Source of the DNA: Psilocybe cubensis
Taxonomy: Eukaryota
Direction of reading: 5' to 3'
Assembly: GCA_017499595.2 (NCBI GenBank)
Contig: CM039000.1
Coordinates: forward strand, 3,720,001-3,784,000
Length of the DNA: 64,000 nucleotides
Below are positions 12,401 to 47,310 of the stretch, piece by piece (the first letter of the stretch is position 1; every line of letters starts with the position of its first letter). The translations under genes were made by a program, and so were the position numbers. The notes below the pieces were generated by a model. It was not told where the DNA came from. It did not search any database and saw nothing but the letters and a program-made list of their open reading frames with translations.

Positions 12401-13006
12401 CAATGATTTCATGCCCATCTGCTGTCCTCTCAGGGGGTATCTCGGTTTTCGCTGTCTCCTCCATCTTGGGTTCATACTTTTGATTCATAATTTGTTCGAT
12501 AGGTTGGCACAAATCCGAGATTGCATGTTCCACCGAACCAGGACCTAGTTCTCTCTCGTAATTTGTCAAGGCGGAGAGGGGGTGCCATTGATCTGCTTTG
12601 CGCAGAACGAGCCGCACCAGGCAGTACCGTGCGTTATCTAGCAGGTCGTAAATCAAAGTCAAAAAGGCTGAGGTGGCTGGCCTTACAAGACAGCATGCTA
12701 AAGTTTTGTAGCAGGTCAATTTCCTGAGGACTTAGTAAAAAAGGTTCGTCCTTTAATACCGTTGATATCATTTCTATCGGACAGGGTTATTACACGGAAT
12801 ACTATTTGGAAAAGAAGATTCAACACACCTTCAAATACGCTAACATATGCTGACGGCCATTGTGATTTGTCTTGACTGGGTCTGTCTTCCTCGACCTTGT
12901 CCAGCCTCTCCTCGAGAGAGTCCAGCGAAGCTTGAAGGGTATCGCCCCCACCAAATATGAGTTGCCATTCAGTTTGAAGTCTTCTAGAAAGCTTGAAGTT
13001 ATTCAT
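9433..13006 (-). CDS. FAN1: Fanconi-associated nuclease 1 homolog (VRR-NUC domain), multi-exon
   Basis: C-terminal VRR-NUC/PD-(D/E)xK core GGPDLFIW...KFVEVKGPGD...NQKVW. Also NVEQRALEHY, HCETRILTTIFALLFWDIIF...FET.YQEAPLD, the TPR-like RGKRSQWYERRAII and N-terminal CLVRLVLRKADQW. Confidence 0.9.
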
Positions 13007-13182
13007 AATCTTAAAATCAGTTCATTAAATAAAAAAAAGAGTATATGTTACAGAAAGTAGATGGATGTTGGTCAAGTTAGATTGACACTTGACCCGAGTG
13101 AACACAATTATTGCGTGTGACAATGTGCCCGTGGAAAAAATACACAGTGTCACATAGTAACTAAGCCACATGATTCGTCACA

Positions 13183-13198
13183 ACGCGTTTCAACGCGT
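13183..13198. promoter_or_regulatory. Tandem ACGCGT (MCB-like) boxes upstream of FAN1
   Basis: ACGCGT at 13183-13188 and 13193-13198, about 180 bp upstream of the predicted ATG at 13006. Confidence 0.4.
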
Positions 13199-13278
13199 TG
13201 TTCACAAAGCGTGACTGTCCTGGTGTACCAGATTGCTGTGAGTGTATACATATATGATATAATTAGACAGGATGGTAA

Positions 13279-14175
13279 GAACGATTAATTTGCTCTGCCA
13301 GTACCTGGCATGCTCTACTTAGTAGAATCTTGCAGCATCACAAAACACTTGTGGACCAAAGCTCCCCAATAACTACTCAGACATTGTATTGACAGTATAA
13401 CAATATTACAGAACGATTAATTTGCTATGCCAGTACCTGGCATGCTCTAAGATTGGGCTCATTAGGAACCAGCACCCCCTTAGGTAAGCAAAAGTTGGCT
13501 TACTTCTGCACTCACACTATTCTACATTTTTGAACCACAGATATGTAGATTATGCTTTTTTGAACACATCTGTGGTTTTTTTTTTCAAAAAAATTTCGAT
13601 TTCAAGAAGTTATAAAGATTTTAATTTTTTTCCCTTTTTTTTTACTCTAACACATCAGAAATGGTGTTTTCTCGAGTTTGGGAGATTTTCGAAAATTTGA
13701 CAATGTTCTTTTGGCCGCTTATATAATGATGCACGTGACTACACGTGACAGTAAGTCACGCCTAAGTAATACCTCTCAGACTCATTATGGACTTGCAAAG
13801 AATACAATTTGACCTCTGAGGTTTATTTCTATTATTGTGGGCATAAAGGCTAGTAGTAAGAAATGTATATGCACATTTATGAAATTTTTTTTCAAAAATT
13901 TTTTGTCTGAAAACATTTTCCGTCAACATAACTTTTGATTTTTTTTTTTCGAGCTGGATTTTGGCCGCTCTTGGCGCCAAGCCCGTTGATTACGTAAGGG
14001 TGCTGGTTCCTGCCCAATCTTAGTAGAATCTTGCCACATCACAAATGTCGGCAGGTCTCCCTGCTAGGTTCGCACGGGGTGCCATTTTCGCACGGGGTGA
14101 CAATCAAAACACTGGTGGATCACGTGTGCTTAAGCATTTTGGGTCCCCACAAAGGGGAGCAAGCTCCCCAATAAC
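13279..14175 (+). repeat. Local diverged tandem duplication (copy A ~13279-13373; copy B ~13411-14175, carrying the MITE and extra sequence)
   Basis: gaacgattaatttgct.tgccagtacctggcatgctcta...tagtagaatcttgc...aagctccccaataact occurs twice. Confidence 0.85.
13450..14020. mobile_element. MITE copy 1 (non-autonomous, Tc1/mariner-pogo-like, TA TSD)
   Basis: Left TIR AGATTGGGCTCATTAGGAACCAGCACCC; the right TIR has a 5-bp deletion. TA at 13448-13449 and 14021-14022. Near-identical inverted copy at 20963-21554. No transposase. Confidence 0.9.
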
Positions 14176-14954: not shown

Positions 14955-17900
14955 CTAATCTAGCGGGTAAAACTCAAGGCCAAGAGCGGATCTATGTTTC
15001 AAGAATAGATCAGGACCTAGATTCTTGGTAAACATATCGGCAACGTTATCAGCAGTCGGAACTGCATATAATTTGAGTGTGCCTTGCTCTATTTGTTCCC
15101 GTATGTAATGATAGCGAATCTCCACGTGCTTAATCCCTTTTTGTGTCACGGGATTCTGCGCGTTGAATATTGCACCATGTGAGTCCGCATAGACTGGGAC
15201 GTGAGAAATTGGTTTGGCCAGTTCCGCAAATAGATTTTTAATCCATGCGCAATCTTTGGCGCAGTCGGAGAGTGCCATGTATTCACTCATAGTAGACGAC
15301 GTCGAGACTAACTTCTGTGTCTGTGATTTCCACATGACCGCAGCATTTGCCAAGCTAAAGAAGTAACCTTGTGCAGACCGACGCTTAAGGTCGAGCTCTG
15401 ATTGGTCATCTCCATAAGAGGCGTCACAATAGGCATATAGGCCTGCGCGAGACTTCCCATCATAAACTAAGGCATATTTGCGTGTGCCAACAAGGTACCG
15501 CATAATATATTTAGCCTTGTTCATGTGGTCTTCAGACGGATTGGAAGCAAACTTCGCCATCTGAGTCACTGCATAGGCAATATCAGGTCTAGTTCCAAGC
15601 ATTAGGTAAAGCAAGGAACCAATCACTGATTGGTACTGCGAGCGAAGTTGTGCCGAACTAGTACCATCGAACGGTATTGGGCGATAGCCCGTGGGTAAGG
15701 GAGTTCTAGCAGCTTTAGCATCGCTCATGCCAAACCGAGTTAGAACCTTCTCCAAATAGTTGGCTTGACTCAAGAGGATTTTGCCGTCTTTATAATCAAT
15801 AGCCATGCGGAGAAACTCCCGTGATTCTCCGAGATCCCGGCAATCCCACTTCTTCATAAAGAGATCTTTCTTCTGTCGTGAGAGTTCGGAGTTAGGTCCG
15901 GTGATCTGGATGTCGTCGACATAGGCAAACATTATTGCTAACGTGCCGTCGGTATGACGTGAGATGAAGATGCCGGCGTCCGAGTATAGTCTGGTGAATC
16001 CAAGCTCTTTTAGACTTCTGTCTAGCTCGAACCACCATGCTCGTGCGGCTTGTTTGAGCCCATAAATTGCCTTTTTAAGCCGGAGTACTTTCTTCTCCTG
16101 TCCCTTTAGAACAAAGCCCTCAGGCTGTTCCATATATATCTCCTCGTCTAACGGCCCATAAAGGAAGGCCGATATGACGTCAAGGGACCAGACTTTCCAC
16201 CCTTCGAGTGCGGCAAGGGCAAATATTGTGCGAACACTTGGTAGCATGACCACAGGTGAGAATAACTCATCGTAGTCTAGGCCTTCTATCTGTAAGAAGC
16301 CTTTGGCTACCAGACGAGCCTTTTTCCGACCATCAGTTTTGATGTCGTAGACCCATCTGCATTTGATGGCTTTTCGGCCATTAGGGAGATCGACAAGCTC
16401 ATAGACCTCTCTTTTGACGAGGACCTCTAACTCGTCTTTCATGGCTTGTCTCCATTCCTTCTGTTGGTCAGCTGGTAATTTCAGCAAATCACGCAGGGTC
16501 CAGTCACGGACATCCTTTGTGAGACCATAATCAGCAGCGCAGATAATTTCGCAGACCCGTTTGGAAAGTAATGTCGCGAAAAGACTGTTTGCTACTCCCC
16601 CTTCCGTCCCTGAATTAGGGATACCAGATTCAACATTGCGATTGCTACTAGATCGAGTAAGTGGCACGTAATCAGGGACGGATGCCACTCCGTGTGAAAC
16701 AGTCTGCAGCTTCTTACGTCGATCTTTATCGGTTGTTGTTCCGGGTCGGTAAACATTGCCTTCCCGCTCTGGTACTTTCCGAGTTCTATCCGACCTTCTG
16801 GGCGGAGGCTTGACAAGTGTATCAGGCATTTTTGGTCTTTGATTTGACGTGGGAGGTGTTACGTATCCCTGATCGTCATCCTGATCATCGTCATCGTCAC
16901 GAGGAGGATGTGAACTAGGCCCTGGCATAGAACTTGGAGGACTGGCGGACCGTGGGCTCGGTTGATCGCCTGTCTCTTTCGGCAGAGGTGGCATTGGAAA
17001 GTCGTCGTTATCGGAATCTGTCGACTCACTTCCATAGCCGATTTCAAAGGAGGGTCCCTTTGGTTTTGGAGGATTAAAGTGTGTGTTGGGTGGAATCTTC
17101 CTCTTAGATTCACACTTTGGGAATAAGGTTTCATCGAATAGGGCCTTGTTCGCACGAAAGACCACATTATTCGGAGATCTCATAAAGATCATCACCGAAT
17201 TAGATTCGTAGCCAAGGAATGTCATCAACTCGGAACACGGTGATAACTTATTTTTACGCTGCTCCTTGTGTAGGTACACATAAGCTGCGCATCCCAAAGT
17301 TTTAATTTTAGACACATCAGGTAACTCCCCCTTAAGGGCCTGATGGGGTGTCTTCCACTCAATGCGTTTTACCGGAGTCCTATTGTATAGGAAGACAGCG
17401 TGGGCACAGCAAAATTGCCACCAGCTATCCGGTAGACAGGCGTAATGCCTCATCGCTTCAGACTTTTCCATAATTGTCCTGTTTAGTCTTTCAGCTCGAC
17501 CATTGCTCTGATGAGCATAGGGAGCTGTAAAGCAGGCACGTGTACCGGCATTTTGTAGCCGTTCCAAGAACTCGGTACTAACGAATTCTCCGCCATTATC
17601 AAAGAAGTATTCTTTGACGGAGGTACCGTACTGTTTTTCCACCATTTTCTCGAAAGAATTCACAGCCGCAGCGGCATCACTCTTCTTTTTAAGAAAGTAG
17701 AGCCATACGTGTGGGGTGTGGTCGTCCAAAAAGGACATGAAGTATTTACACTTCTGGTAGGAATAAACAGAAAATGTCTTGAGATCACAATGAATACGAT
17801 CAAAAGGCTTCTTCGCGCGTTTGGGGTTTTCGTCATATGACTTATCAGTCATTTTACCCTTCGCGCAGCCTTCACAGATATTTTTGTCCTTGGGTACACT

Positions 17901-20207
17901 TATTTTGGGAAAGTTCTTAGTGGAGTCCCTAAAATGTCTTAGAACATCGTCAGAGGGATGACCAAGGCGTCGATGCCAAAGGTCACTTGACTCTTGAAGA
18001 GTCGAAGATAACGTGCTAATGTTTTCTCCAGAGACAATGCGCGTATGCACCCAATACATTGGATGTCTGTTCGATTCAATTGAATCTGCCCTGGCCTGCA
18101 GGCCATATGATTTTTTAGGCAAATCAAAGAACCGAAGGACTTTAGCTGTTCCTTCTATGGTCATGCCGGATGACAGGAGTTGTCCCATCGACATTAATCG
18201 AACATGTAATTGTTCCATGTATAGAACAGGATGGAGTCGGCGGACTTCATGTCCCAGATCCTCGGAGTGGGAAACCACTTCTACAAAGACTGTTCCAAAA
18301 CCGGTGATAGGCACCGTGGTAGTGGCAGTTTGCGAAATAGGTCGATTATTCTCAGCAAAGTCTTGATAACTCGCAAAATCAGACTTATCGCCAGTAAAGT
18401 GCACACTAGCACCACTGTCCATTAACCAAGCCGTTATGACTTTTTTTCCCTTTTTGGGTTTTTCAGTTCCTTTTCCTTTGCAATCTGGACAACACGCAAA
18501 ATGAGATAGATATTTTTGGTATACATCATGTACAAATGAGTAGTAAATATCTACAGGGAACTCCTCCTCCTCCGGCCGGTCGACTGTTGAGTCGTTGTCG
18601 TCTCTAGATGGGGTAGTCCCTGTGGGAATCTCAGTGTTATTTATGGTCCAATTGCTAGAACTAGAACTTACTTGCCTATCAACGAAATGGTCATCGTAGT
18701 AACCATCATAGAGATCCTCATCATCTTCTCCGTAATCCACACGTTCCTCAATAGGAACATCAGGAGACCGTTCTCTCTGATCATCAAAGTTTGGGATATC
18801 ACCCCATTGCTTTGGTTCCGGTCCGAATAGCTCATTATTAAGCTTTTCGATCTCCGGAGATGTGATCTCACCATCAACGACCATGTGATCGTCAATAGTT
18901 TCAGAGTTGACGGGCGGAGTCTTCAACCTTTCTGCGAGGGAGACATCCGAAGGAATTTGTAAGCTGCTCGTGGCAACGCTTTCCATGATCTGGAGTGCCT
19001 GCGAAGTAGGCTTTACACCAATTCTGGAAGCTAGGCTGCGTGCGGCAGCAGGAGCCGGGTATGGCGCCATGCGTGTGTCCGGATTTCTCCAGGGCCCAGC
19101 CGGAGCAGAGGTACGGGAGGAGATACTTCCTCTACCGTTGATCTCGATGATCCTTGACGTGGTGGGAGCTGGAATTGCTGGTTCGAGAACCGTCAATGTT
19201 GATGCCATAAAGACATCATCCGCTAAGGCTGTATTGCCTTGTGCACGCTGCTTGCCTTTGCCTCGTGGGGCACGCTTACGAATCCTCTTCTCCTGATTAT
19301 CACCCTGAGACTGTCCCTGATTAGGGGTCTTCGAAGGATGATAGTGGGGGTGTTCCCCTTTTGGTCGGATCGCAGTATTGCGTTCAGCCGACTGTTGCGG
19401 TGCCCGGGAAGGGCCGGTCTTTGGTGCAGGCTTAGGGTCATATGTCGTACCCTTTTTAGGCTTTTGCCTGTCATCCAGATTACCAAACCGCGCTCCCCAA
19501 CGATTGCGGATATCAGCAGAGATAGCCTCCAGCTTCATGTCGTCAATCTTGGTCTTGTCTCCATAATCATTAATAAGGTCTTGATATATGGAGGGCGGTT
19601 GATTGGGCGATACCGCAAGGGGTAAACGTGAGAATAAGATGAGACATGCCATGGTCTCGGATACTAGATCCGCATTTTCGACCTTTTTGACATGCTCGTA
19701 GATGGCTCTGAAACGGGCCAGCTGAGGGGTAGGATCCGAAAGATCAAATTTGAAGGTGGTCAGACGTTTAAAGTCCTCCATCACTTCAACAAATTGAACT
19801 TTATCGTATTTTGCTTTCAGATCATCCCATGCCCCCTTCGCGGTCTTTCCCTTGACTGTTTCCCAAATAGATGGGATCAAGGAATTCGCGATGACACCTA
19901 GTGCCTTGGAATTCTGCTCCTTAAAGTCTTTCATCGTTTTTTCAAACGACGAAGATCTTTGCGACCAGCGTTGAAATTGGATTTTCCACAGCTCAATTTG
20001 AGCTGCGTTAACAGTTGTTGCCGGAGCAACAGGGGATGGGAATGCAGGCTCTCCTTCAATTGGAGAAGGGGCCACGACATCTCCAGAGATAACCCCATCA
20101 ACGCCAGTCAGGAGGAATATGGGAAGCATTTTGTCAGCCCATTTACGATAGTTGGAACCATCAAATTTGGGGAATTCGGAAACGGATACAGTTGCTTTGG
20201 AAGACAT
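14955..20207 (-). CDS. Copia Gag-Pol polyprotein (Gag, protease, integrase, RT, RNase H)
   Basis: Uninterrupted ORF with first ATG at 20207. Motifs in Copia order PR-IN-RT-RH: FDGSNYRKW (gag), WLMDSGASVH (PR), LWHRRLGHP..CEGC (IN zinc finger), SNGRAERLNRT, KARLVAKG, YGLKQA, YVDD, KHVEIRYH, ADMFTK. Confidence 0.97.
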   Translation of the reverse strand: MSSKATVSVSEFPKFDGSNYRKWADKMLPIFLLTGVDGVISGDVVAPSPIEGEPAFPSPVAPATTVNAAQIELWKIQFQRWSQRSSSFEKTMKDFKEQNSKALGVIANSLIPSIWETVKGKTAKGAWDDLKAKYDKVQFVEVMEDFKRLTTFKFDLSDPTPQLARFRAIYEHVKKVENADLVSETMACLILFSRLPLAVSPNQPPSIYQDLINDYGDKTKIDDMKLEAISADIRNRWGARFGNLDDRQKPKKGTTYDPKPAPKTGPSRAPQQSAERNTAIRPKGEHPHYHPSKTPNQGQSQGDNQEKRIRKRAPRGKGKQRAQGNTALADDVFMASTLTVLEPAIPAPTTSRIIEINGRGSISSRTSAPAGPWRNPDTRMAPYPAPAAARSLASRIGVKPTSQALQIMESVATSSLQIPSDVSLAERLKTPPVNSETIDDHMVVDGEITSPEIEKLNNELFGPEPKQWGDIPNFDDQRERSPDVPIEERVDYGEDDEDLYDGYYDDHFVDRQVSSSSSNWTINNTEIPTGTTPSRDDNDSTVDRPEEEEFPVDIYYSFVHDVYQKYLSHFACCPDCKGKGTEKPKKGKKVITAWLMDSGASVHFTGDKSDFASYQDFAENNRPISQTATTTVPITGFGTVFVEVVSHSEDLGHEVRRLHPVLYMEQLHVRLMSMGQLLSSGMTIEGTAKVLRFFDLPKKSYGLQARADSIESNRHPMYWVHTRIVSGENISTLSSTLQESSDLWHRRLGHPSDDVLRHFRDSTKNFPKISVPKDKNICEGCAKGKMTDKSYDENPKRAKKPFDRIHCDLKTFSVYSYQKCKYFMSFLDDHTPHVWLYFLKKKSDAAAAVNSFEKMVEKQYGTSVKEYFFDNGGEFVSTEFLERLQNAGTRACFTAPYAHQSNGRAERLNRTIMEKSEAMRHYACLPDSWWQFCCAHAVFLYNRTPVKRIEWKTPHQALKGELPDVSKIKTLGCAAYVYLHKEQRKNKLSPCSELMTFLGYESNSVMIFMRSPNNVVFRANKALFDETLFPKCESKRKIPPNTHFNPPKPKGPSFEIGYGSESTDSDNDDFPMPPLPKETGDQPSPRSASPPSSMPGPSSHPPRDDDDDQDDDQGYVTPPTSNQRPKMPDTLVKPPPRRSDRTRKVPEREGNVYRPGTTTDKDRRKKLQTVSHGVASVPDYVPLTRSSSNRNVESGIPNSGTEGGVANSLFATLLSKRVCEIICAADYGLTKDVRDWTLRDLLKLPADQQKEWRQAMKDELEVLVKREVYELVDLPNGRKAIKCRWVYDIKTDGRKKARLVAKGFLQIEGLDYDELFSPVVMLPSVRTIFALAALEGWKVWSLDVISAFLYGPLDEEIYMEQPEGFVLKGQEKKVLRLKKAIYGLKQAARAWWFELDRSLKELGFTRLYSDAGIFISRHTDGTLAIMFAYVDDIQITGPNSELSRQKKDLFMKKWDCRDLGESREFLRMAIDYKDGKILLSQANYLEKVLTRFGMSDAKAARTPLPTGYRPIPFDGTSSAQLRSQYQSVIGSLLYLMLGTRPDIAYAVTQMAKFASNPSEDHMNKAKYIMRYLVGTRKYALVYDGKSRAGLYAYCDASYGDDQSELDLKRRSAQGYFFSLANAAVMWKSQTQKLVSTSSTMSEYMALSDCAKDCAWIKNLFAELAKPISHVPVYADSHGAIFNAQNPVTQKGIKHVEIRYHYIREQIEQGTLKLYAVPTADNVADMFTKNLGPDLFLKHRSALGLEFYPLD

Positions 20208-20479
20208 TCTTAGTGCGCTTAAAGCTTGAGCCTGTGACAAAAATAAGTCAGCAAGGCTTTTTTCACATCCTGAACTTAAAATAGAAGGAAACAGTTGGGC
20301 TGGTCAGGCCCGATCAATCTCAAGATCAGATCTAAGATCCAATCGAGATTAAGATCTTTTGCACACTCATCTAGATTGCCAAAATAGGCGTTATCTTTCA
20401 GAGCAGCATGGGGCAAGTATTGTCCCTATGCCAGTGCCGTCGACAGCAAGGCTAACAAGCCTGCGTCGTTATGGCTACG

Positions 20480-26026: not shown

Positions 26027-27659
26027 TCATGTTGATGCAGGGGTATAACCTGGGGGTGGGTCGTCCGACAAGCCCTGTGCCCACGCTGATCGTTGCTGCT
26101 CCCTCAGATACTCAACCTGATCCCTCAGGAACCGCAATTGATCCTTCATCTCCGCCACACTCATCTCCTCTTCAACCTCAACCACCCCTGCGCCAGGCTC
26201 GGCGCCCTGTGACTGCTGCCCAAGTGTCCGCCGTCTCCTCACAGACCTATGGCGACCAGACTTCTCCCCAGACATGTCAGATGCTAAAAACGCCATTTCC
26301 TCTTGCACAGTGCGCAGACGAGCGTCCAATTCGTTCTGACGTGCGCGCCGTATGTCTTCAATGTTCCCGCTGTCGCGCACAGAGGTTGTGGCTGTGACAG
26401 CGCCTGGGTGCGGTGTGGTCGGCGATGCGGGTAGGTCGGGGGCGGTAACAAAGTGCAACATCCGGCGGCTGTTGTCGCTTCCCGAGGCGTATTGTTGTCC
26501 AGATCGTGACGGAGCAGCGTCGCTACTGCTCTTGCTACCAGCAATACTGACGTATGCGTCGTAGGGAGAGTCAGATTGTGACGAAGACGAAAGTGGGTGC
26601 GTGTAAGCGACGGAGGGTGCTGTTGTCGATGGGCCAAGTTCGCTCCTACTTCGAGAGTTGTATGAATCCAAAAACGGCTGCACAAAGCCAGGTGATCGAT
26701 GTTGGATACCAACGGGAGACCCGAGTTCTTCCATTAACGGAGGTGTGTATCCATCAGCCTCTAATCGACTGGCCTGCTGCCCTCGCCTTTTCCTACGAAT
26801 CCAGCAGAAGATGACAGTAGCAAGAATGGCTAATACTGCCAGGCCGCCTGCAACACCCCCCGCAATGACACCCGTCGACGTGCCTGTTTTTTCCGCAGAG
26901 GGTGAATTGTCGGATGGATTTTGTAATGGAGTTGGTGATGCTGTCGCTCCCTTTGTCTGTGATGACGATGAGGATGTGGAAGAGGATGTGGAAGAGGATG
27001 TGGAAGAGCTGCCAGGGGGTGGAAGTGGAAGTAAGGGAGCATCGTCATCGTGTCTGGTTACCAGACGCTTTAGCTACCTCAGATACTCGCTGCTGGATTA
27101 AAACTCACGTATAAATAGCATAGTCAAAATTGACGTAAACGTTGGTGTTCACACCCGAGGTTGATATTACCAGCGTGTGCTCTGCATTGATGAGGTTTGT
27201 CTGCGAGAAGACTAGTTGATTAAAATCAAAGCTTGTTGTCGTTAGGTCGGGAGCATGTTGGAACAACTGTGGCGAATTTCCGTCCAGCGTGAAGTTAGCC
27301 ATGGTCAAAGTGGTGATGCCATCTCCTTGGTTGTTCGCCAGCACGAAGAAGACATAGATGGCTGTTCCGTTGAACTTCATTGTGATGGATATGCTGCCGA
27401 GAGACGGCGCATATGTTGCTGCAGTATAAGTCCTTTTGAAAGTCTGTGATACATCGGGATTGATCGCACAGTCAAGACATGTTTCGTCCTTCCAGACGCC
27501 TACAGTAGTCGGTCGATAGGATGCAAGCAGGCCTGTCTGTGAATCGCCAAAAGTATCGTCAATAGTGCGGTTAACGATTCCAGCAACGACCAATAATGGA
27601 CCAAAACCAAGCAGCAAAAGCACGAAGAGAGCACCAGGCCCAATTCGGAGCATGGCCAT
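26027..27659 (-). CDS. Type I single-pass receptor-like protein (signal peptide, 'IDDT' ectodomain, Ser/Thr linker, TM, coiled-coil, PPGY tail)
   Basis: Exon 1 is ORF 27105-27659, followed by an intron at ~27055-27108. Exon 2 contains TM GVIAGGVAGGLAVLAILATVIFCW-IRRKRR and ends WAQGLSDDPPPGYTPAST. Confidence 0.85.
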
Positions 27660-34208: not shown

Positions 34209-35717
34209 ATGTCCCTGGACACCAATATTGTGAATCTGCCCCTTGAGCTTGTGGATGAAATTATCTGTATGGCAGTACAAAACTTTGGACCAAAGACACA
34301 CTCGGCTATTGCGCTCACATCTCACCTCACCGAGGTCGTATGCGCACAAACAAGACGCGTTATTCCACAGTAAATTTCGGAAGATACACTATGTCCTACT
34401 CAGAGAGCGACGAGAGCGACACGGTGCCGAATTCCCTCAACAAGCGAGTATCGTCCTTTGCGGATTTGATTCGAGCTGGAGATGGAATACATAGTGTACG
34501 AGGGATTTGCGGGTTTATTCGGTCCGTCGTGTTGAGGATCAACGATTTGATGACAAGATATAGTCTAGGGTTTGATTGGATCTTCAGGGATGCTGACTTC
34601 CAGTTTATCCTGCAAAATATTTTTCGGATGTCGTCAGAGAATCCGACTTTTGATCTGGCAAACACTCCCCGTGTCGAATATTTGTTTACTTTGGGCTTGC
34701 GGCGTACGTGGACGCCTTCCGATATGGTGTTTAAATCACTTAAAAATTTTATAAACTCCTCGAAGCTTGACCATCTATCACTATATAATGTTCAAGGGTT
34801 GCAGAAGGGAATCCTTTCGCAAAGCAATGTCAAACACATTGTTCTATACCAGGCAAGGGCAGCATCAATAGATTCGAGTATAGTTGAAGATTTGGATAGC
34901 ATCACCAATTCAGAGGGGGAAGAAAAACGGCTCAGAATATGTCCGTTGGAGTCTCTTGAAACCGACATGAATATGACGCTAGCTGAACAGGTTTCTCTTT
35001 TCCACTCGCGCCCACACACCTCTAGTGTTGGACACCATCTACCAGGCGAAGCTATCTTTCCGTATCTTACCAAGTTGAGGCTGCATTGTAAGCGGATCCA
35101 TACTAGCGAATTCAACATAGCAGCCAACGAGATACTTTTGAATGCACCTGCCCTGGAAGATCTGTTTATATACAACGGGGATAAACTTCGTGAGTGTGTT
35201 GTCAAAGAGGGAGACTCTATATCTGATTTCTATTTTTGCCCTTTTATTTATTCCAGCAACTTCATATTGGCCAGAGCACAGTGTTTTGCCTCTGCGATAC
35301 AGCCATCTCACTAGGCTCCGGTCCTTCTCATTGGGCACGTACATACCAATTTATAAGCAGATAGAGATTCTCCAGTGTCTCTGCGCGGACGACCCTCCCC
35401 CAAGCTTGAGTGAGATTATCATGGAGGCCATGATAGACCTGCGCTACGGACTCTTGCGCGGTATCAAAGACGCAGTAAGGTATATCCAGTGGCTCAGTCT
35501 AGATAAATTGGACATGTTTTTGCGCCGAACGGGCTTTGAACGAGTGAAAAAGGTTGTTGTGAGACTCGGTATGGCTATGGATATATATGAACCAGAGGAT
35601 CTGGACAAAGAGGTGACTGAGGGGTTTGTGATTTTGTGGAGGACCACCATCAGGGATGCGGTAACCCGCCAATTGGAGATGAAGGCCGTAGAGGTGAATG
35701 TCGAATTGGAGTTGTGA
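34209..35717 (+). pseudogene. F-box-like protein gene with a 5-bp frameshifting duplication
   Basis: ATG 34209 opens NLPLELVDEII (F-box-like) out of frame with ORF 34340. Deleting one CTCAC of the tandem pair at 34321-34330 fuses them. An intron at ~35190-35256 joins to the exon ending at 35717. Confidence 0.65.
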
Positions 35718-37663
35718 GTGGTTATCAATTTGTATTTGTAGGGCTTACCGGCTGAGCCCGTTGGTATCTTTGCTTTTTTTTCATAGCTATGACCAGTGGC
35801 TTTATCCCGAAGAATCAATGGGAGTTTATCGTTTTAAGATTTAGCATGCAAAGGACCGAGCATTTTAACTTGTAAATTTGGCGGATTCGGTCAATGATAG
35901 ACAGATTGCGATTCCCAAAAATCAAAGTGTACTACTAATAGAACCGGCAAGTCACCATTGAATGTTAAACGTTGAACGCATACCAAAGCTTATGGGAAAT
36001 GATATATGGATTTAGGCAATCTGGACTGTTTCTCAATTCTCTCGTTTTGTGTCTCGATTCTCAAGCAGCTCTCGGGCGCCTGATGGGCGTATCTGAAATT
36101 TTGATTGCATTAAACATCCAAGCAGGTGCTTTGCCACTATGTAAAGTAAATGCAAACAGACAGAAAATAAACAGATGCCAGACTTTCACACTGTGGTATA
36201 CATTGGAGGAACTTCTACCACACCATTACTTGTAGAGAGTGGCAAACGAATCCCGCTATCCTCATGCATAACCAACCGTGAAGGCTCCACACCAGATGAT
36301 GCATTTTGCTCTGGTGACAGTACTGGCTGTGCAGCAAGCTGTGGCCGAGAAACTGCGACAGAAGCTTCATGCTCTCGTCTTGGGTAGCTGCTGCCCGCGT
36401 CCACCTCATTTGCTGGATTCGGAAGGACGCCTATGTCTGCCGCTCTGGAATGTGAAGAGGGAGTAATGCCATTGTGTCCCGTCGGAGACGGTGTCCCACC
36501 TGAAACCGAGGTCCGTGGCAAAGTGGAATTCAGGCTCTTGATGGTCTGATTGGGAACATTCCAATGTTGCGTCTGATTGTCTGCAGTATTCGGGACAGCT
36601 GAATACTGTGAATAGATGGTTGGAGCGGGAAAAATGCTGGGAGTAAGTTGGAATGGCTCGACAGCGTTGTCGGAATCGTGGCCGTGGTTATACAAAAGTT
36701 GTCGATCACGCTTCGGACCCCAACGGCAAAAATAGATTATAACAAGGGTAGCCAGGATGATGAACACTATTCCACCAACTACTGCACCAGCAATGTTGCC
36801 AACGTTGCTCGAGTGACTAGAACCTGCCGAGCCATTTGCATCGTTACCACCAGTAGTTGGCGACGATGAATTACCGGAAGGGAAAGTCCCATTTTGTACG
36901 ACAAGATACTCAAGAGTCAGAGGTGTTTTTGAAGAGTCTCCAAGGTATGTGACAACGATTGTGTGCGACCCCATAGGATATTCAGATGTTTCAAAGGTTT
37001 TTTGGTTGTACATAGTCGTAGAGGAATCCACCGGATGTCGGAATTTTCAGGAATGCCTTACAAGGCCGAAAAGGCCGGCAAGGCCCGGCTAGCCTTGTGA
37101 TGCCTCCCAATCTGAGAGCGTGCCTAAGAAGTAACCGTGATTGACCTTGTAAGGTAGTGGCTTAGAAGTCTATACATGCCTAGCAAGGCGTAGGGAATAA
37201 GATTAGATTAAAAGACCTTGCTAGGTTGGGCTTGATTCAAAGGGCATCTAACAAATTAAAAGGAAGATGAACGCACTGACATAGTTTCCAATTGATTAGT
37301 AGTCAACGATTGCTTTCAGTAGGAATTGTGTTGAAGTCAAACTTTTATGCACTTACCAAGAACCGAACGCCAGACCTTCAAGACAAGACAAACCTACCAA
37401 TAGCATTGTTACCACTAGACCAAACCTCCTTTCTTAAATTATAGTGTGGCGTTAATATGACACCACATTTTCTGTGCTTAGTCAACTGATGTAACCGATC
37501 GAGTCCAGAGTCGTCTACTCGGACTTCAATTTTTTCAGACAATCTCAATCGTGAGGGCCGTACTATGCATTGAAAAGCAAAGAAGTAATCAACCAAACAC
37601 AGTAGTATGTCCGCCATAATGAGATACACCGGAATGCAAAGTAGTCTAAGTACAGCGTGCCTA

Positions 37664-39662
37664 CTATAATGGTGTAATATTAGCACGCTTACTAGAGCGT
37701 GTGCTCCGTGTTTTGGCTACAACAGTTGCGTCAGGCTGCACAGGGGCCAACCCCTTCTTTCGACCACGTTTTGGCTTGATTACTGGTGCTTCAAGTGGAG
37801 AAATGCTTGTGGAAGCATTAGGAACAGAGACTGTATTGGAAGAAAGGGGAGGGCTTGTCGGAGTCTGAGTCTTCGGAACTGGGAGAAATACTGGGAGTGG
37901 AGCATTGACCGTGGTATTTGTAACATGGAGTGCAGACTCAAAGGCTGCCGGAGTCGGTTCTAATACCAATGATACATAATGGGCATGAGCTAAACGCGTG
38001 GGAATCAAAAGACAAGTACCTTCGTCAGTATCAGATCTATCTTCAGTAATATCCTGAGTATTAGATGGCAGGTTCCGAGTGCTTTGTAGTGGCGGCGCAA
38101 AGTCTTCTACATCAGAGTCGGTGTCACGGTCTTCCACATTAACGATAGGACCCGGAATAGAAGTTGTTGAACTAGGAGTTATGGTTGTTTGTCGACTAAA
38201 GTTGGCAATCATCTGATAAACCGGATGCGGAGATGGACTTGACTCGGAATCCGACATCCTGGAATGGCTTGATGTAAGGATTTCCGTAGGCTGCTGTGTA
38301 ATAGAAGTAGGAATAATGGGTTTTTGGTGTGGAAAGAGAATATTATCCCAATATTTGAACAGTGAAGCGAGTGATGACTGCTGTGTAATGAGATAATGCT
38401 TGTACATATCGTGTTGAGCAAGATAAAGCCTCCCTGTTGTTGGTCCTACACCACTACTGGTAAATTCACGGTCGTCGGATAAGATGTATATAGTCTATAT
38501 TAGTAGTCAATATCTAGCACTCAATTTATAATACATGTAATAACAAATACATACCGCTGTTGCAGACGCAGCTATCAAGCCTGGTGTTGTACAATTCATA
38601 CGACTATCAATATGGGCGCTTGGACTATCTTCCCGTGTTCGAGGCATAATCTCCGCCTTTAAGGCCGATGGCCCTAGAAGAATGATTCTTGCCGTCTAAA
38701 CTAGAGTTTTAGCCAGGTATTATGTATTTTCAGAATTAAATATACTGTACCTTCAAAAGAAAATCACTTTTAAAAAGTCCCAAAGCGTTGTTGGTGTCAG
38801 AATCTGCAAATAAAACTGGGGGAAATGTGTGCGCAGTGTCATTGGGATAAATGAGCTTCCAGATTTCCTTCGTTCCGGTCATCACTTTTACACGGTCCGA
38901 TGCACCAAGCAATGTTTGCACAACCGCATGGGAGCTTAGGCCAAAAGACAATGGTGAGGTGAACAGCTCAGATGGAATGTTTGGGAAAATAGAAGGCGCA
39001 GAGGTCCGAATCTTATTTAGTATTGTTGAACGGCCTTCCGACAAGCCTTTAACGAACTATAGAATAAAGATATATGAGCAAGATATCCTAAACTTGGAAA
39101 AAAGATATAAAACGCACCACATTAACTGCCATCTCCACATTCTCACTGATAATTGAATGGTACTTTGCTGGAAAGCATTCGTACAATTCCGCAATATTGC
39201 CAAGCTTGGATGTATTCTCGTCTTTGTACCGAGCAGATGCATTGTTAGAGCTGAACGAAGGCCTGGGATTTCCAAAGAGTGACTTGGGAACAATAATACG
39301 ATAGAAAATGAAATGATATTTAGCAAGACGAATAAGGTCCTTTCGGAGAGCTATTTCGGCTGCGCAATCCGATGTGTCAGAGACAGCAGGTCGAACAGCG
39401 CCTTTTTTGTTGATCAAGCGCATTTTCAAACTTGCGTTTTCCTCTTTAAGCTCCCGGACCTTTGATTCCAGATTAAAAATGGTATCTTGCTGGATCCGAC
39501 ACCTCTGTTTCTATTCATTAGAATCTAGAAAATGCAAAAATACATTAAAATATTACTTACTTGCTCAAGCTCGGCCAATGTTGCTCCACGGAAAAAAGAC
39601 GCGCCTGAAATGGATGACTCGCCTGCAACGGAGCTTGGAACAATTGACATTGATGAAGACAT
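37664..39662 (-). CDS. Transposon accessory protein (N-terminal coiled coil, DUF6698-like helical domain, Pro/Ser-rich region, basic PKRGRKK tail), multi-exon
   Basis: ATG 39662 then a GTAAGT intron. Exons read LESKVRELKEENASLKMRL, PPVLFAD...GLFKSDFLLK, TARIILLGPSA...TTPGLIAASATA and YILSDDREF...YWDNILFP. The DUF6698 resemblance is from memory. Confidence 0.6.
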
Positions 39663-39933
39663 GACCAAAGAGTTGTACCAGAGAGGATATGAGTTAGAAT
39701 ATCAGTGCTGCTACTCAGAAAGAAGAAATTTTGTGTCTTTTAAACAGAAAAGTGAGCCGCACCCTTTCCTCATGTTAAGCGCCGTGCTATAGCCTTGATA
39801 TAACATCATTTTCCCACTATGTAAAGGATCAAGCTGAAAATTTAATATAACGTGTACAAAACACAAAAATAGAGCACTATGCATGCTTGATTACACTCTT
39901 TATTGTATTCTGTTTAATATGTAACAACACTAG

Positions 39934-42900
39934 TTATAATAAAACATGTGTAGTTAATTTTATTGATTTTAACCGCCACCACATGTCCGGATCAAGTGAA
40001 TCCATAACAATAAACTCGTTTGCATCATTTCCAAAGTCTGGAATCAGAAGGCCACCGCGTACTATACTACGTACGTCAATAATTGCAGAGTTTGTTCGCC
40101 TTCGGGCTCGTACTCGGAGAAACTCTAAATCTTTATCACGCCTACGTGCCAAATTTGTGCGCTGATCAACCGGTTCATCAAGTGGCAGAATAAGAGCAAG
40201 CGGCCACTCTGTTTTGTCATCTAATGACACAATAAACATGAACAGAAGTTGTGCAAAGCAGTACTTCTGATGATCAAGTGCCAAAAGGACGTAATCATTT
40301 CGTGGCCGCTTGTGGAAACTTTTGCTAACTCGAACCATATCTCTTTGAGCCGACCAATCAATTTCCGACTGATAATGAATTCTTGCAAGCTCAAATGGTG
40401 TAATCTGTTACACAAGTAAGTTTTGACATGAAAAATAAATAATGCTTAAATTGTTCTTGTAACTCTTACCTTATGATTGGCTTTTAATCGGATAGTACTT
40501 CCAGAAGCTGCTGCAAGGTATTTTCCTGTTTTAATCCGGAAGCGTTCAAATGCCATGTTCTCTTTGAATTGTTTTTCCACATCGGCAAATGTGATTATTG
40601 CTTGAAGTGACCCAATTGAAATGTGACTTTGAGCTCTTTTCTCATTACTTGATCCTGTTAAATGTCAATTTAATAACATTATACATGTACAAACAAATAG
40701 ACCGTTACCCAATGAATTTCCAAGATTGGAAACTTGTGGTGTAGATATAAGTGATTCTTCGCCGTCCTCTTTGGGCATGTCAAGATCATCAATAGCATTG
40801 ATATCCATGCGAATAATCATTGCAATAAGATCATCGTGGTTCATTTTTAATATCTGTTAGAAGCAAATTTACTAGATCAGACAAATAATATTGTACACAT
40901 GAATTAAAGCACATTCCTGTGGCGCCACATCTTTGAAATTGGTGTGAAAGCGGTACCAGAGCTTAAGCAAGCCATGTGCCTTTTCATTGGGTTTAGTATT
41001 AGAGTTCCGAGTTGCACCTTTTGCAACAATATCTTGAATCATATGGACATGTGAATGGATTTTAGGAAAATTCCAATTTTTGTCTGGATGGAGTTGAATA
41101 TATTCCTGGAAATTTTATTGTTGAGAGAATTAATTGGGTCTACATATGAATTGGAGAATGCCTTACCTCAAGAATAGAACAGAACTTTGCAAGTTCTTTT
41201 TGTAACCCATGTAATGTTGTACTGCTATGAATAATCAAAGATGAATACATATCCAATTCTACAAAGCTTCGCATAAGCTTGAGCAGACAATATCCACGGT
41301 CTGACTTCTCTAGAACATTATGAGATGCATAACAAATGATCTAGAAATCACAGATATATTATATTCACAATTAGTGTCTAAAAAATGCATGTGTACCTTT
41401 GCTATATCTTCATATTTTGTTCCATCTGCAAATTCTCCTGTCTTAATTATAGATGCAAAGTGATTAAGACCACTCCATCGAGGAATTTGATCAAATCTAT
41501 AAAAGCATAAACCTTATTATTACTTATCCATCAAGAGGTTATATTATCAATGCTTACTGATTGTCAATAATCTCAGCATCTTTCCTTCCAGAGCTATCAA
41601 TAATAGCCTTAAATTCTGACCATAAATGATCAGAAAATAGTCCACCATGGTATGCATGTAGTCGATCCCAGGAAAGAGCTTTATATACATCACTCCCATT
41701 CATCATCCAAAATACATTCTGTAGGAAATATTAATCAAGAATAATGACATATATAATGCACTATACCTCTACATTTCGTAATCCATATTCTTTTAAATAA
41801 TTCTCCTTATCTTTAGCTGTAAAATTTTGTGCCTCTGTATATATGTGTTTCATTTCTGCTGATGTTCGATAAGGGTATACCGTGGTAAGATTTGATAAAT
41901 TTTCCTTTGGAACCAAGCATACAGGACACGGAAAGTTGCTTGTAGCACCACGGGTTAGGGCCATAACACATCTATAAAATAGGCGCCCAACAGTTTCATT
42001 TACTATAACAATTATATTGAAGTAAACTATTACTTACTGCTCTTCATAATCCGCTGATAAAATCAAAATAAAGAAGAATAGCCACCGGACAATGTTGTCT
42101 GCACACTGTGCATAGTATCCTGTTGTGGCATATTCTTGAACGGACTTAAGAATTTCGTGGAATCCTTTGTGCCAAACAATACGCTTGAAGTTTACAAAAA
42201 TTTTCTTTCCTGACTCGCCAGCATCTTCATCAACCTAGAAATCCATATTTGGAGTTTAATACTAAAAAAATTTATAACATTTAGAATGCTTACAATAGGC
42301 AGCCATCCAACTAGGATTCCCCCACCAATACCATCACTGTTTCGAAGATTTGCTGGAAGATTTGCACAGCGAGCAAGCACTGGATATGCCTTTGCAGTAC
42401 CAAAGGTGGATAGCCGAGTTTTGTCTGCATATAGGATAATAAAAAATGGTAATGCACCATTGGGAAGAAGGTTCTAAAGCAGAGTAGGATGATAAGTATT
42501 CTACATTTGTAAAAAGAAAAATATATACATCTACCTGGATGCTCCACCATTCATTTGCAGTCCATGGTTCTCCAATCAACCGGTCTCGTTTACCGTCATT
42601 TTGTTTATAATGCCTTTCAGCAATCCAATGAAACTGTGAAAGTAGAGAAGGATTCTGAAGAAGACTATTGCACCACTCAATTAGTGGCCGGATATACACT
42701 TCATACCCAATTTCATCATTTTGGTATGGTACAAGATATTCCTTTTTCTGGAACTGTACTCCATAGTATTAGTTAGTACAACTACAAAATAGAAAAAATA
42801 TTACGCACTCCAGTTGAACGGTAGCTACGAGCAAGCTCCCAGGTCTTCTCAAGCTCTGATACACTGTCAATTGTAAACTGCTCTGGCTTTTCTTTGATTC

Positions 42901-43595
42901 TGTCAATAAGGGTTAATAAAATCTGCTTTTGCTGCCTATTCATATGTGAGCTAAGTGCAAGTTCTGCCACTTCGAAGTCAAGACGTGTCCTAAATGGATG
43001 CCACGGGTTGGTACTGGTAGAATGGGGTGTTGGTGACGTTTGATAGGAATTTGGATTATATTGGTGTGTAGGAATGAATTTTGGTGGCATATTTGCACTT
43101 GGATGAAATTCAATGCAGATTTGATGTGGAAGCGGTGGGGGCAAATGATTATTTGAAATTTCATCAAGCATTTGAAGTATAGAGGATTGATTTGTGACTG
43201 GCTCAATTGAATCTTCCGGCTCCATTGAAAGGGAAATATGATGACCATTTAGAGAATCCTGTGTCTCCATTTGAGCCATATCTATAGCAGAATAAGAAGC
43301 GGTTGTAGAATCCTCATTTGGTATAGCTGGAGAGTGGCTAATAGCAGCATTTAAAATTGATGTATAATGTAGAGAGTCTGTATGAGTTTTGAATGGTAAA
43401 TGTCAATAATTAGATTATACACTATGACATACTATTTTCATAAACCCTATTTGCAAAATCTCCAAAAGCATTCTGTGCATCCAGACTTGGTGTTTTGCCA
43501 CTACATGATCGGATATGTTGAGCAATGCCTTGGATGCTAAACATCTTGTTGCATATTGGGCACAATTGGTCCTTTGGCTGGCGGCGGTTAGCCAT
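39934..43595 (-). CDS. Plavaka-family transposase, multi-exon
   Basis: N-terminal CPICNK...HIRSC zinc finger. Motifs PWHPFRTRLDFEVAE, EPWTANEWW, ILYADKTRLSTFGTAKAYPV, ILSADYEEQ, FPCPVCLVP, DRLHAYHGGLF and WNFPKIHSHVH...NTKPNEKAH. Confidence 0.85.
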
Positions 43596-46500
43596 GTCTT
43601 TGAAAGTAAAGAAGATATCAGAAAGAGGAGCAGATAAAGAATTAAATATGATCCAACTGCTTTTATACTATTTTACCAGCATCTAATATAGAGTGTGCTG
43701 GAGATTATTCGTCTCATAGGCCCTAGTTTCATCATTCTGCTGCGCTACATCACTAAGCTACCATAATCAGTTCATCAATTTAGTCTGCCAGAACATGTAT
43801 TCTAGTAACCATCTATCAAAATATGTCATAGTATCCAGCACAAAGGTCTTTAAGAGGTTAAAGATTCTCATTGTTGATGATTAAGGCAGTACTACCATAG
43901 TTGTACAGTGCAATATGCATGCAACATACAACAATCAACACCGAGTTACAATGCATCAACTTATGAGATATCAGTCAAATCATTCTTTCCCATGTATCAT
44001 GTTCAAAATTAGTCTCTCTTCGTGTGGAATTACTGATTATCCACCGTACCCTAGATTATTTACCTTTGTAGATAGCATGTGCTACATAAACAGTTACTTT
44101 GGTGAAGACGTAGACGATGTATGTGATTTTCTTCTAAGTCCACTGTGTCGCGTGATCCATGTGACATTCTTCTCACGGCCGTGACCCTTTGCTTACTTGT
44201 GCTCTATGGCGCACAAACTGCAGGGATATTGACACAGCACTAAAAGTACATAAAATAAAGTGTAAATGATCCACAATGACGTAGAAAATTGTCCAATTTG
44301 ATATATCTATACTGACCATCCCTTGAATGCCTGACAACTTTGCACTTGCTGTGTATGTGTGTGACGTTAGTCACAGTCAAGTTGTAAGGCCTCGTATGGT
44401 TGTAATATGGATCAACTTCAACTTCAGTAGGTTTCTTACGGTAGCTTGTACATTTAGCACTCACATTTTCTCAAAATAAATACGCATTTGGTCCTCTAAA
44501 TACATTCTATAAATCATTTTCATTTGCCCCTCTTTACAAGTGAGTGACACATGACTTCTATATTTATCTAATCCAACGCAAGGCAAAAGTCGGCATTCTA
44601 AGAGAGCCGAATCACATTAGAAGCCAAATTTTGGCCTAATCTAGGCCCCATCATTGTAAGGCTATCCCGAAATTTCCGACAGAAGACCATTCAATGAAAA
44701 TTGGATAGGAGCTTGATTATCGACGTAATAGCTACCAACAGTGGCGGCATGAGGAAGGTCTGGTGGGATTTGTGAGAACCAGCTTAAAGATACACCTAGG
44801 ATTGAGCACATGAGAAGATTACAACAGCAGTGCAAAAAGAAATGAATGTGTCGACATACCTATAAAGGAATACGTGAAAATGGAATTTGGAGTTTGCGTG
44901 AAAGTGGCCGTAGTCCCATCTAGATACGGGTTCCACCCAGACCCATATTGTAATTCAGGATCACGATGATCCAATTTAATGGCGGCATTTTCGAGAGATA
45001 CCGAGCTTGAAGGAACATACTGAATATTATCAAACCAGAAGGTCTGTTGGTTCTTAACAGTTACATTCACAGTAAGAATATGTGGTCCATCTAGTAGTGC
45101 ATCTTGGTCGCAAAACACCCAGTGGTTTTCTGTACCAAGAAATGAAGATGTGTTGCCAATACTCTTATTGTCGACAAAGCACTCCCAAGTGGGGTCCAGG
45201 ACTCCTGAATCGTTATGAACATTGCTTAAACCGTATACAGTCACTTGCGAGCCTGTGTGATACTGTCAGACCCAACAAGGTACAGAATTGTTAAACGGGT
45301 GCTTACCATTGAAAGCGAAGGAAAGACTTCCATCTGACCTTGTTCCATGCAAGGTGCTCTTGTACGCTGGTCCAAAATTCCCATCGTTATCATGAGTTCC
45401 TTGGTCTAGAAACCAACCTGAGCCAATGTAATTTATACTGGGATCCGTGTCGTCGACAAATATCTCTCGCCGAGACGTCATTTCAAGAGCTGTAGCACAA
45501 AAGGCACGGACAGAGAAGACCTAACGGAAGTGAAAGACGTGGGCATCCCTTGATGCTTTCTTTTCAAGATTACTCGTCGTCGAGACCGTGAACAGGCCTG
45601 ACATCAGATGCAAGAGATGGACAGATGGAATCATGGACAATCGATTGTGTTGCAACATTGCCAGGACTGGTCAATATGATGATGGTGTATCATGTATGGA
45701 TATCCTGAGATGTCCTTTCATGCAGGCGCATATGTTATGGTTTAGCCGCCAGCGTGAATGCCAATCTGTCCGAATCCGCTTCTTTCCTCAATTTGGGCCA
45801 CAAATGCACAAAGACGGGCAAATTGTGATCCTTCATCCCGATAATCAGTGAAAAGTAGATACATTAGCGTAGGATAGTAAGCAAAACTCACCCTTGCGTC
45901 TTCGCATTTCGGTTGCTTGTTGCAAGATAATAAACAAATTCCAAAAAGATTAGGATCCCTTCAAAATTAGGAGTTTTCTTTCCTCAACGGGATAGCACAC
46001 CCAGGTCGATTTCAGGCTCAGATATATTTCTATCCAACTGCCTGCTCGTCTAATCCCCAAAAATGGATTGCATCAGAGCAAGTCTCAAGAAACAGAAGCA
46101 GGATTTTCAATACCATTTGAGTATGAAGCATGGGGACGTCAAATCGCTCGTGTCGGCCAGTAGCGTCGAATGGGGCAAGTACTCCATGACGAGGCTAAAT
46201 TGAACGGTGTTAGGGGTACTTGTGAAGATTTTCAAAGCAGCCGCCCGGTTCTGATTTGAAAGCTATGCAACATGAATAGCACTACAAAGCTTCCAACTTG
46301 CTCAAACTGTCGCATAAATAATTAGTTGACTAATATTCACTATGTCAGATGGCAGTACATCATACCATCTCTAAGTTCGTTTTTGTGTTCTTGAGTCATT
46401 TTGGTGTTGTTGGTGTGGAAAGCAAGGAATCGAATTGGGTGGAGTAGCATAAGAGGTGCTTATTATTGGGGTATCACGCTGGTCATCTTTGATGTCGACG

Positions 46501-47310
46501 GGGAGTAGGATCATGACATACAACTGCCTCGCTACTTGTTGGGGCAGTGTAAAGGGGGTAGGGGCAATGAATCTAAACAAGCAGTGCAACATCCGCTCTT
46601 CTTCGGGGCAAAAGGCAGGGGCGCCGAGAGAGTGCAAAAAAACGCATGAGACCAAGCAGCGGACACGACGATCATTGAGGTAGTTTACAAGTCAGGGGGT
46701 TGGAAGAGACAGAGTGTGTGAAGAGCTTCTATCGATCTGCTCGCCAAGGTGATGGACGGCGGCAGCGGAGATGGGAACGAACGACATGATTCTGTTCGTT
46801 GTCGTGATGGAGGACAGCGAGCGAGGTCGGGCAGCTCGCGGTGATGGTAGGCCTGAGGTGCTATCGGTCATATGACTAGTCGCGCTGCCGGCAACCGGCC
46901 CGATCACTTGAACACCCAAAAAAGGCTTCATAGGGGCTCCATCCATCGAGGGGAGGACTGCTCGATATTTGTGTTAAAATTAAACGATAGCCTAGATGTC
47001 TGGTGTCTATGTAGAGGATACCAGAGATTCATGTGTAGACACTGGGAGAGCTGGTAAGGCACGACCTAGTTTTTCCATTAACAAAATAACCGCCTGTAAC
47101 TGCCAGTCACTGACGACTCACGAAAACAACTTCAAAAAATCTTGAGCAACGGATAGATCTGAACTTTGACAATTTGTAGAGTAAGATCTGCATCCTAACT
47201 TAGAGTATTGTCCTAAATATGAATTCTATCATCTATCTATGAGATATTGGCATGGTTTTTCAATTTAAATAAATAAAATGCTAACTGATAACGAGTAAAG
47301 CGAACCAGTC

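Follow-up and report, generated by a model that had tools for sequence, protein, structure and literature searches.

In a 64,000-nt stretch of the Psilocybe cubensis genome (GenBank assembly GCA_017499595.2, contig CM039000.1, positions 3,720,001 to 3,784,000 of the forward strand; hereafter, the window), we identified a 7,646-bp insertion, which is very probably a cut-and-paste DNA transposon, autonomous and belonging to the PlavakaA lineage, which is related to the CACTA/EnSpm-Mirage-Chapaev (CMC) elements. An intact copy, an empty site and a near-identical copy elsewhere together constitute base-exact, population-level evidence for recent movement of a PlavakaA element; prior published work on the Plavaka group was built on consensus reconstruction. 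The borders of the element, in window positions, are as follows.

37036..44681, minus strand: the whole element, assigned to PlavakaA, 7,646 bp (joint 37033->44682 in 4/4 other sequencing runs; contig of run X7)
37036..37063, plus strand: terminal inverted repeat (TIR) at the 3′ end of the element, TGTCGGAATTTTCAGGAATGCCTTACAA (28 nt, 86% complementary to 44654-44681)
44654..44681, minus strand: TIR at the 5′ end of the element, TGTCGGAAATTTCGGGATAGCCTTACAA read inward (inverted-repeat search)
37034..37035, no strand: left copy of the target-site duplication (TSD), GA (single GA at the empty site in 4/4 other runs)
44682..44683, no strand: right copy of the TSD, GA (same evidence as for the left copy)

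The two inverted repeats match at 24 of 28 positions (TGTCGG...CCGACA) and form the best-scoring inverted pair in the interval searched (36500-45200); the binomial chance that two fixed ends agree at no fewer than 24 of 28 positions is about 2.4e-11. The dinucleotide GA lies directly outside each end. The original prediction, made from the letters of the window, had claimed TGTCGG TIRs with GA on both sides, and this is correct to the base according to the TIR search, the flanking letters and the empty-site joint; the span it gave, 37034-44683, takes in the two GA copies along with the element. Both genes of the element are on the minus strand, so that its 5′ end is the right end in the window. 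We found no further copies of the element inside the window.

Single minus-strand open frames within the element match the Pfam family Plavaka, and a search with the last transposase exon led to UniRef proteins named Psilocybe cubensis. The UniRef protein P0002 of this species (1444 amino acids (aa)) is identical at 1444 of 1444 residues to an 18-exon GT-AG model of the locus (43279-37667, minus strand), while P0001 is the same sequence with different splice choices. P0002 matches Plavaka (PF18759) over profile positions 38-322 of 325 with 185.7 bits (cut-off 26.3; E 1.7e-54): the spliced protein thus scores above the gathering threshold of the family, in agreement with the complete Plavaka-type transposon that had been claimed. 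The public model P0002 nevertheless appears to be wrong twice, as it is without a zinc-finger exon and fuses two genes. Our own models predict two intact, intron-rich genes on one strand, encoding a 983-aa transposase and a 570-aa coiled-coil/DUF6698 protein, the latter from a second open reading frame (ORF2).

39934..43595, minus strand: transposase gene, 13 exons, 983 aa (ATG at 43595, stop at 39934-39936; Plavaka PF18759)
37664..39662, minus strand: ORF2, 6 exons, 570 aa (stop at 37664-37666; exon borders from P0002, ATG by inspection)
39662-39561, 39510-39118, 39056-38751, 38695-38555, 38494-38020, 37959-37667, minus strand: exons of ORF2 (from 39561 downstream as in P0002)

The transposase model is free of in-frame stops and its introns, all GT-AG, measure 48-75 nt. 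Its first exon (43595-43433) specifies a C..C..H..C zinc-finger motif and is followed by a 55-nt GTATGT..CAG intron, after which the next exon continues in frame; the paralogs P0003 and P0004 have a conserved counterpart of the exon 1 sequence at their N-termini. With an uninterrupted transposase frame and both TIRs, the element has what is expected of an autonomous copy, the activity of the protein being predicted. Motif inspection of the 983-aa model yielded as candidates YADKT at 332, SADYEE at 437, CPVC at 458, HAYH at 532 and NEKAHG at 696.

The product of ORF2 consists of an N-terminal coiled coil, the DUF6698 region (41.6 bits, E 1.5e-10, for P0002) and a basic C-terminal tail, and its model is likewise free of in-frame stops. 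The ATG at 39662 is backed by the stand-alone homolog P0007 (618 aa, DUF6698), which starts at the equivalent Met. In an AlphaFold2 model of P0007 (6-row alignment; mean pLDDT 34), only the coiled-coil helix, approximately residues 31-72, is predicted with confidence.

An alternative reading is that the locus encodes one long fusion protein of transposase and DUF6698 (1444 aa) or, in a variant, that alternative splicing of one transcript gives both forms, as with TnpA and TnpD of En/Spm. The two genes lie on the same strand, 271 nt apart; P0002, P0001 and the paralog model P0004 all join both parts, and in P0002 the stop at 39934-39936 falls within a 340-nt GT-AG intron (39973 to 39634) and is spliced out. 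All three are, however, automatic models, and P0002 also omits the conserved zinc-finger exon. Against the fusion, P0003 (970 aa) has a C-terminus like that of the unspliced reading (..MWWRLK..), and P0007 stands alone and starts at the very Met through which P0004 reads. We consider the fusion unlikely, also in view of the gene order in relatives, where ORF2 homologs are found in positions that it cannot explain.

Those relatives come from one metagenomic scan, which gave 80 loci whose encoded relatives show 29-57% identity. For ORF2, we built a hidden Markov model (HMM) from three Psilocybe proteins, which matched 10 loci, and then iterated it to 14 loci; the E-values of the iterated HMM are inflated, since matches were added to the model. 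Seventeen loci extend at least 1,700 nt past the transposase; in 12 of these an ORF2 homolog was found on that downstream side, and in the other five (L003, L021, L037, L055 and L062) none was found. L027, where the flank is shorter, has one as well. Ten loci have a recognisable 3′ terminal motif, and in eight of them the homolog is enclosed by the transposase on one side and this end on the other. It occurs on the opposite strand in L058 (2515-9390) and upstream of the transposase in L005 (2650-8326), whose 3′ end is located 255 nt past the transposase; these are the two arrangements at odds with a fusion protein. In Psilocybe itself, ORF2 follows the transposase in two diverged families. Only one of 16 ORF2-like exon pieces from the metagenomic loci passed the Pfam cut-off for DUF6698 (L053; L013 is weak), and the linkage therefore rests on the HMM built from Psilocybe proteins. 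In L013 (1093-12199, 11.1 kb), about 5 kb separates the transposase from the ORF2 homolog; this interval may be cargo.

Searches for ORF2 by other means were less productive. Word-based searches, for which both ORF2 pieces and P0007 served as queries, returned matches only among Psilocybe cubensis proteins, and a phmmer search of 1.84 billion representatives, with a single ORF2 exon as query, returned three, one of them an unrelated DENN-domain protein; such a single-exon search is too insensitive for a family evolving as fast as that of ORF2. Amongst the atlas clusters retrieved, DUF6698 and Plavaka both occur in Basidiomycota, and no cluster contained both families. The literature searched contains no mention of "DUF6698", the linkage of ORF2 to the transposase was not found in print, and the passages of Kojima 2025 (PMC12730594) examined do not discuss a second gene in PlavakaA.

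By analogy with En/Spm, whose TnpA and TnpD serve as the comparison for the second gene, we tentatively propose that PlavakaA elements may be two-gene transposons in which ORF2 is a conserved, fast-evolving accessory transposition factor with a role like that of TnpA, a proposal to which we give somewhat less than even chances. If true, DUF6698, so far an uncharacterised Pfam family, would acquire a function, and the intact, strain-polymorphic Psilocybe family would be a live test system for the role of ORF2. The linkage of the DUF6698 gene with the transposase is the one lead worth following.

The insertion interrupts a coding exon. The host gene is tandemly duplicated, and both it and its tandem paralog specify single-pass membrane proteins whose stalk is rich in Ser/Thr; a Pfam search of the two revealed no family.

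36186..37035, minus strand: host gene, part downstream of the insertion (exon with a Ser/Thr-rich stretch, one transmembrane helix and a tail)
44684..45520, minus strand: host gene, part upstream of the insertion (upper limit approximate)
47311..48928, minus strand: intact tandem paralog of the host gene (73% identity over 1,478 nt across the junction; empty-site reference)

When 37036-44683 (the element and one GA) is removed in silico, the joined flanks match the paralog without gaps over 265 nt at 76% identity. The part of the paralog matched lies at about 47.9-48.2 kb, the point equivalent to the junction being some 3.4 kb away from it. At the junction, CCGGA|AGACC corresponds to TCGGAAGACC in the paralog, which has a single GA. 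The minus-strand frame through the rejoined junction is part of a 341-aa open frame, ..QFSLNG|LPVDSS.. versus ..QFSLNGLPTDSN.. in the paralog. The claim that excision restores the host reading frame and matches an intact paralog about 3 kb away is thereby borne out.

The unoccupied site exists in other strains. We searched public sequencing runs with 35800-45700 and aligned four of them (X5, X6, X7 and X10) on 35000-47000. All four carry the joint 37033->44682, in which 7648 bases are skipped and two letters fit either side, meaning an empty site that holds exactly one GA. In X5, X6 and X7, one contig each carries the joint; in X10, it is carried by 22 raw reads from 15 start points. Depth is zero in X6 and X10 over 37406-40613 and 42619-44623, with the flanks covered. 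In X7, a 7,676-nt contig spans exactly 37036-44681 with two differences, and the letters next to this span do not resemble the flanks in the window; X5 has element contigs that stop at 44681. An element with identical ends is thus present elsewhere in other strains, in which the site in the window is empty. We conclude that the insertion is real, that it is both recent and polymorphic, and that its 2-bp duplication can be seen directly. The family has moved recently, given that none of the other runs examined has the insertion and that at least one contains a near-identical copy at another place. The original prediction had suggested looking for the empty site in other strains; in the in-silico form of that check, made here, the single-GA empty site appeared in 4/4 runs, and the claimed recent mobility holds.

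One could instead suppose that the insertion is old and that the empty sites elsewhere are precise excisions, the polymorphism having arisen by loss. Cut-and-paste elements do excise, and our sample consists of only four other runs. Excision by DDE transposases usually leaves footprints, yet all four empty sites have exactly one GA without any footprint and match the paralog free of gaps. Moreover, the element copy in X7 differs at only 2 of 7,646 bases, and the host frame is otherwise intact on both sides, by which the disruption must be young. We therefore regard an old insertion as very unlikely. Still more improbable is that the placement of the element in the host gene is an assembly artefact. 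In its favour, runs X1-X4 may be the source data of the assembly. A misjoin would not yield a 2-bp direct duplication just outside both TIRs where the empty allele has one copy, and X1-X4 contain 0.99-1.00 of the 31-mers sampled from a stretch including both junctions.

Three local observations in the same alignments concern the element and its surroundings. Over 40614-42618, X6 and X10, which lack the element, show low depth across the catalytic core with 90-95% likeness. A joint skipping 147 bases (42212->42360) occurs in contigs of X5 and X6 only, X10 having just loose read ends at 42212. The probable origin of these signals is related Plavaka sequences, for example the paralogs P0003 or P0004. 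At 46563-46720, the empty-site contigs of X5 and X6 have 148 other letters in place of 156 bases, a replacement by which the alleles differ within or close to the host-gene part upstream of the insertion.

The architecture of the element agrees with what is in print for PlavakaA. Section 3.2.2 of Kojima 2025 (PMC12730594) gives 2-bp TSDs and 5′-TGT..ACA-3′ termini for PlavakaA families, and in its supplement PlavakaA consensuses and insertion examples start with TGTCGGAAA. The consensus of PlavakaA-1_LB from Laccaria bicolor starts with TGTCGGAAAAATCCGTGATGCCTTACAA, very close to both ends of the Psilocybe element. The PlavakaA insertion lines examined in Figure S2 of the same paper all show, as we read them, 2-bp TSDs (TA, TT, GT, TT, TA, CA, GT and TA). 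The families named there (PlavakaA-1_LB, PlavakaA-1_CCO and PlavakaA-1 to -4_SLL, the last from Serpula lacrymans) share with the Psilocybe element the 2-bp TSD, the TGT..ACA termini and the first 8-9 bases, TGTCGGAA/A; their size, 8-9 kb, is similar to 7.6 kb. A second block, GCCTTACAA, lies at the same distance from the end in PlavakaA-1_LB and in the Psilocybe element. In our reading, the PlavakaA-1_LB consensus has at its start an ATG and then a C..C..H..C motif, which resembles exon 1 of the Psilocybe element. The Psilocybe element differs from these PlavakaA families in species and family, and in that the insertion is polymorphic between strains. The word "Psilocybe" is absent from the main text of Kojima 2025. 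The element would, accordingly, represent a new member of the already described PlavakaA, assigned by termini and TSD; its placement in this clade is suggested by the likeness of its termini to those of PlavakaA-1_LB.

The other published branch of the group looks different at its ends. PlavakaB families have CATCA..TGATG ends, and the Plavaka elements that carry TET/JBP genes are all PlavakaB (Kojima 2025, PMC12730594, in the parts consulted). Table S3 of Hiltunen 2021 (PMC8290104) lists 23 Plavaka families of Marasmius with CATCAG-type or CACCA-type ends, of which 19 have TSDs marked as 2 bp, one with a question mark, the field being empty in the remaining four; autonomous members measure 11-13 kb. 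PlavakaB and these MarorPlavaka elements share the Plavaka transposase domain with the Psilocybe element, but their termini are CATCAG.. or CACCA.. versus TGTCGG here, and Pfam scans of frames and proteins revealed no TET/JBP gene at our locus. In the portion of Hiltunen 2022 consulted, the only Plavaka event was a deletion unlike excision, and we found no reports of Plavaka mobilisation in the literature searched.

With En/Spm and other CMC elements, the Psilocybe element may share a DDE transposase with C(2)C after the second D (candidate CPVC at 458, by motif inspection), and with En/Spm it shares short TSDs and a second protein gene on the transposase strand. En/Spm has CACTA termini and 3-bp TSDs, and the Psilocybe element has neither; a clear subterminal repeat array was not found in it, and the likening of ORF2 to TnpA is by analogy. 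The reading as a canonical CACTA/EnSpm or PlavakaB element, which could draw on the recognisable similarity of Plavaka and EnSpm transposases (Kojima 2025, PMC12730594) and on an assignment to PlavakaA that rests on termini and TSD, is highly improbable given ends that are TGTCGG..CCGACA with a 2-bp TSD, neither the CAC..GTG with 3-bp TSD of EnSpm nor the CATCA..TGATG of PlavakaB and MarorPlavaka, and given that Pfam scans of P0002 and P0003 detected no EnSpm family at E up to 10. The original prediction had rightly described TG..CA ends instead of CACTA and a 2-bp TSD (TIRs; single GA in 4/4 runs and in the paralog). It had also called this architecture rarely documented, which does not hold, as it was already given in Kojima 2025 and, for 2-bp TSDs, in Hiltunen 2021. 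Since TGT..ACA ends with a 2-bp duplication are in print, the architecture adds no new principle.

The terminal motif recurs amongst the metagenomic relatives. Of the 80 loci, 23 have TGTCG[GC]A[AG]A on the upstream side of the transposase, and in the total of 388,776 nt this strict 9-mer was found 34 times on the expected side and strand versus nine times elsewhere. In 34 termini, the two of the window included, the consensus is TGTCGGAAAtTT, with the second block about 20 nt further inward, and the flanks beyond TGT are unrelated. Copies of the same family have differing flanks (L028, L030 and L031; L056 and L057), which sets the boundary at TGT. Only two metagenomic loci have both ends, L013 (11.1 kb), with a 2-bp duplication TA, and L007 (7.9 kb). 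An inward-facing copy of the terminal motif, ..CCCTTTCCGACA, is located 734 nt from the 5′ end in three loci of one family (L028:12-745, L030:2339-3072 and L031:11-744); it is identical in all three, whose outer flanks differ, and may be a subterminal binding site or a nested miniature element.

For the PlavakaA element of the window, transposition could proceed as follows. The transposase would recognise the terminal block TGTCGGAAA, which is conserved, and the second block some 20 nt inward, possibly by means of its N-terminal zinc finger. The DDE active site, for which D332, D437 and E696 are the candidates, would cut at the TG..CA ends, and integration by a 2-bp staggered cut, followed by repair, would yield the duplication. 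The second protein would probably have an accessory role, as the analogy with En/Spm TnpA suggests. At the left end of the element, GCCTT/AAGGC words show a local excess, with six in the first 200 bp versus at most two in any other bin.

Several points weigh against the element being an autonomous PlavakaA transposon with the properties described. The candidate catalytic residues were picked from motifs alone; the histidines of HAYH are two residues apart, unlike the H(3-4)H quoted by Kojima 2025 (PMC12730594, in the part consulted); and a profile of the transposase alignment had no matches among PDB sequences at E up to 10. The subterminal repeats are weak and the 9-mer is without enrichment across the window (GCCTTACAA with one mismatch: 18 matches versus 13.6 expected, not significant). 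L007 is without a 2-bp duplication (CT versus AG), its inverted repeat running 4 nt further out. Finally, the possible origin of the assembly from X1-X4 makes independent read support for the filled junction indirect.

Elsewhere in the window, the minus-strand frame at 26027-27073 has a weak match to a transmembrane/juxtamembrane profile and may encode a protein similar to that of the host gene. One open frame of 1,782 aa without interruption (14955-20303, minus strand), some 17 kb away from the Plavaka element, includes Copia-type gag, integrase and RVT_2 domains and is apparently an intact Ty1/Copia retrotransposon, to which the AT-rich kilobase at 13001-14000 (GC 0.36) may also belong.

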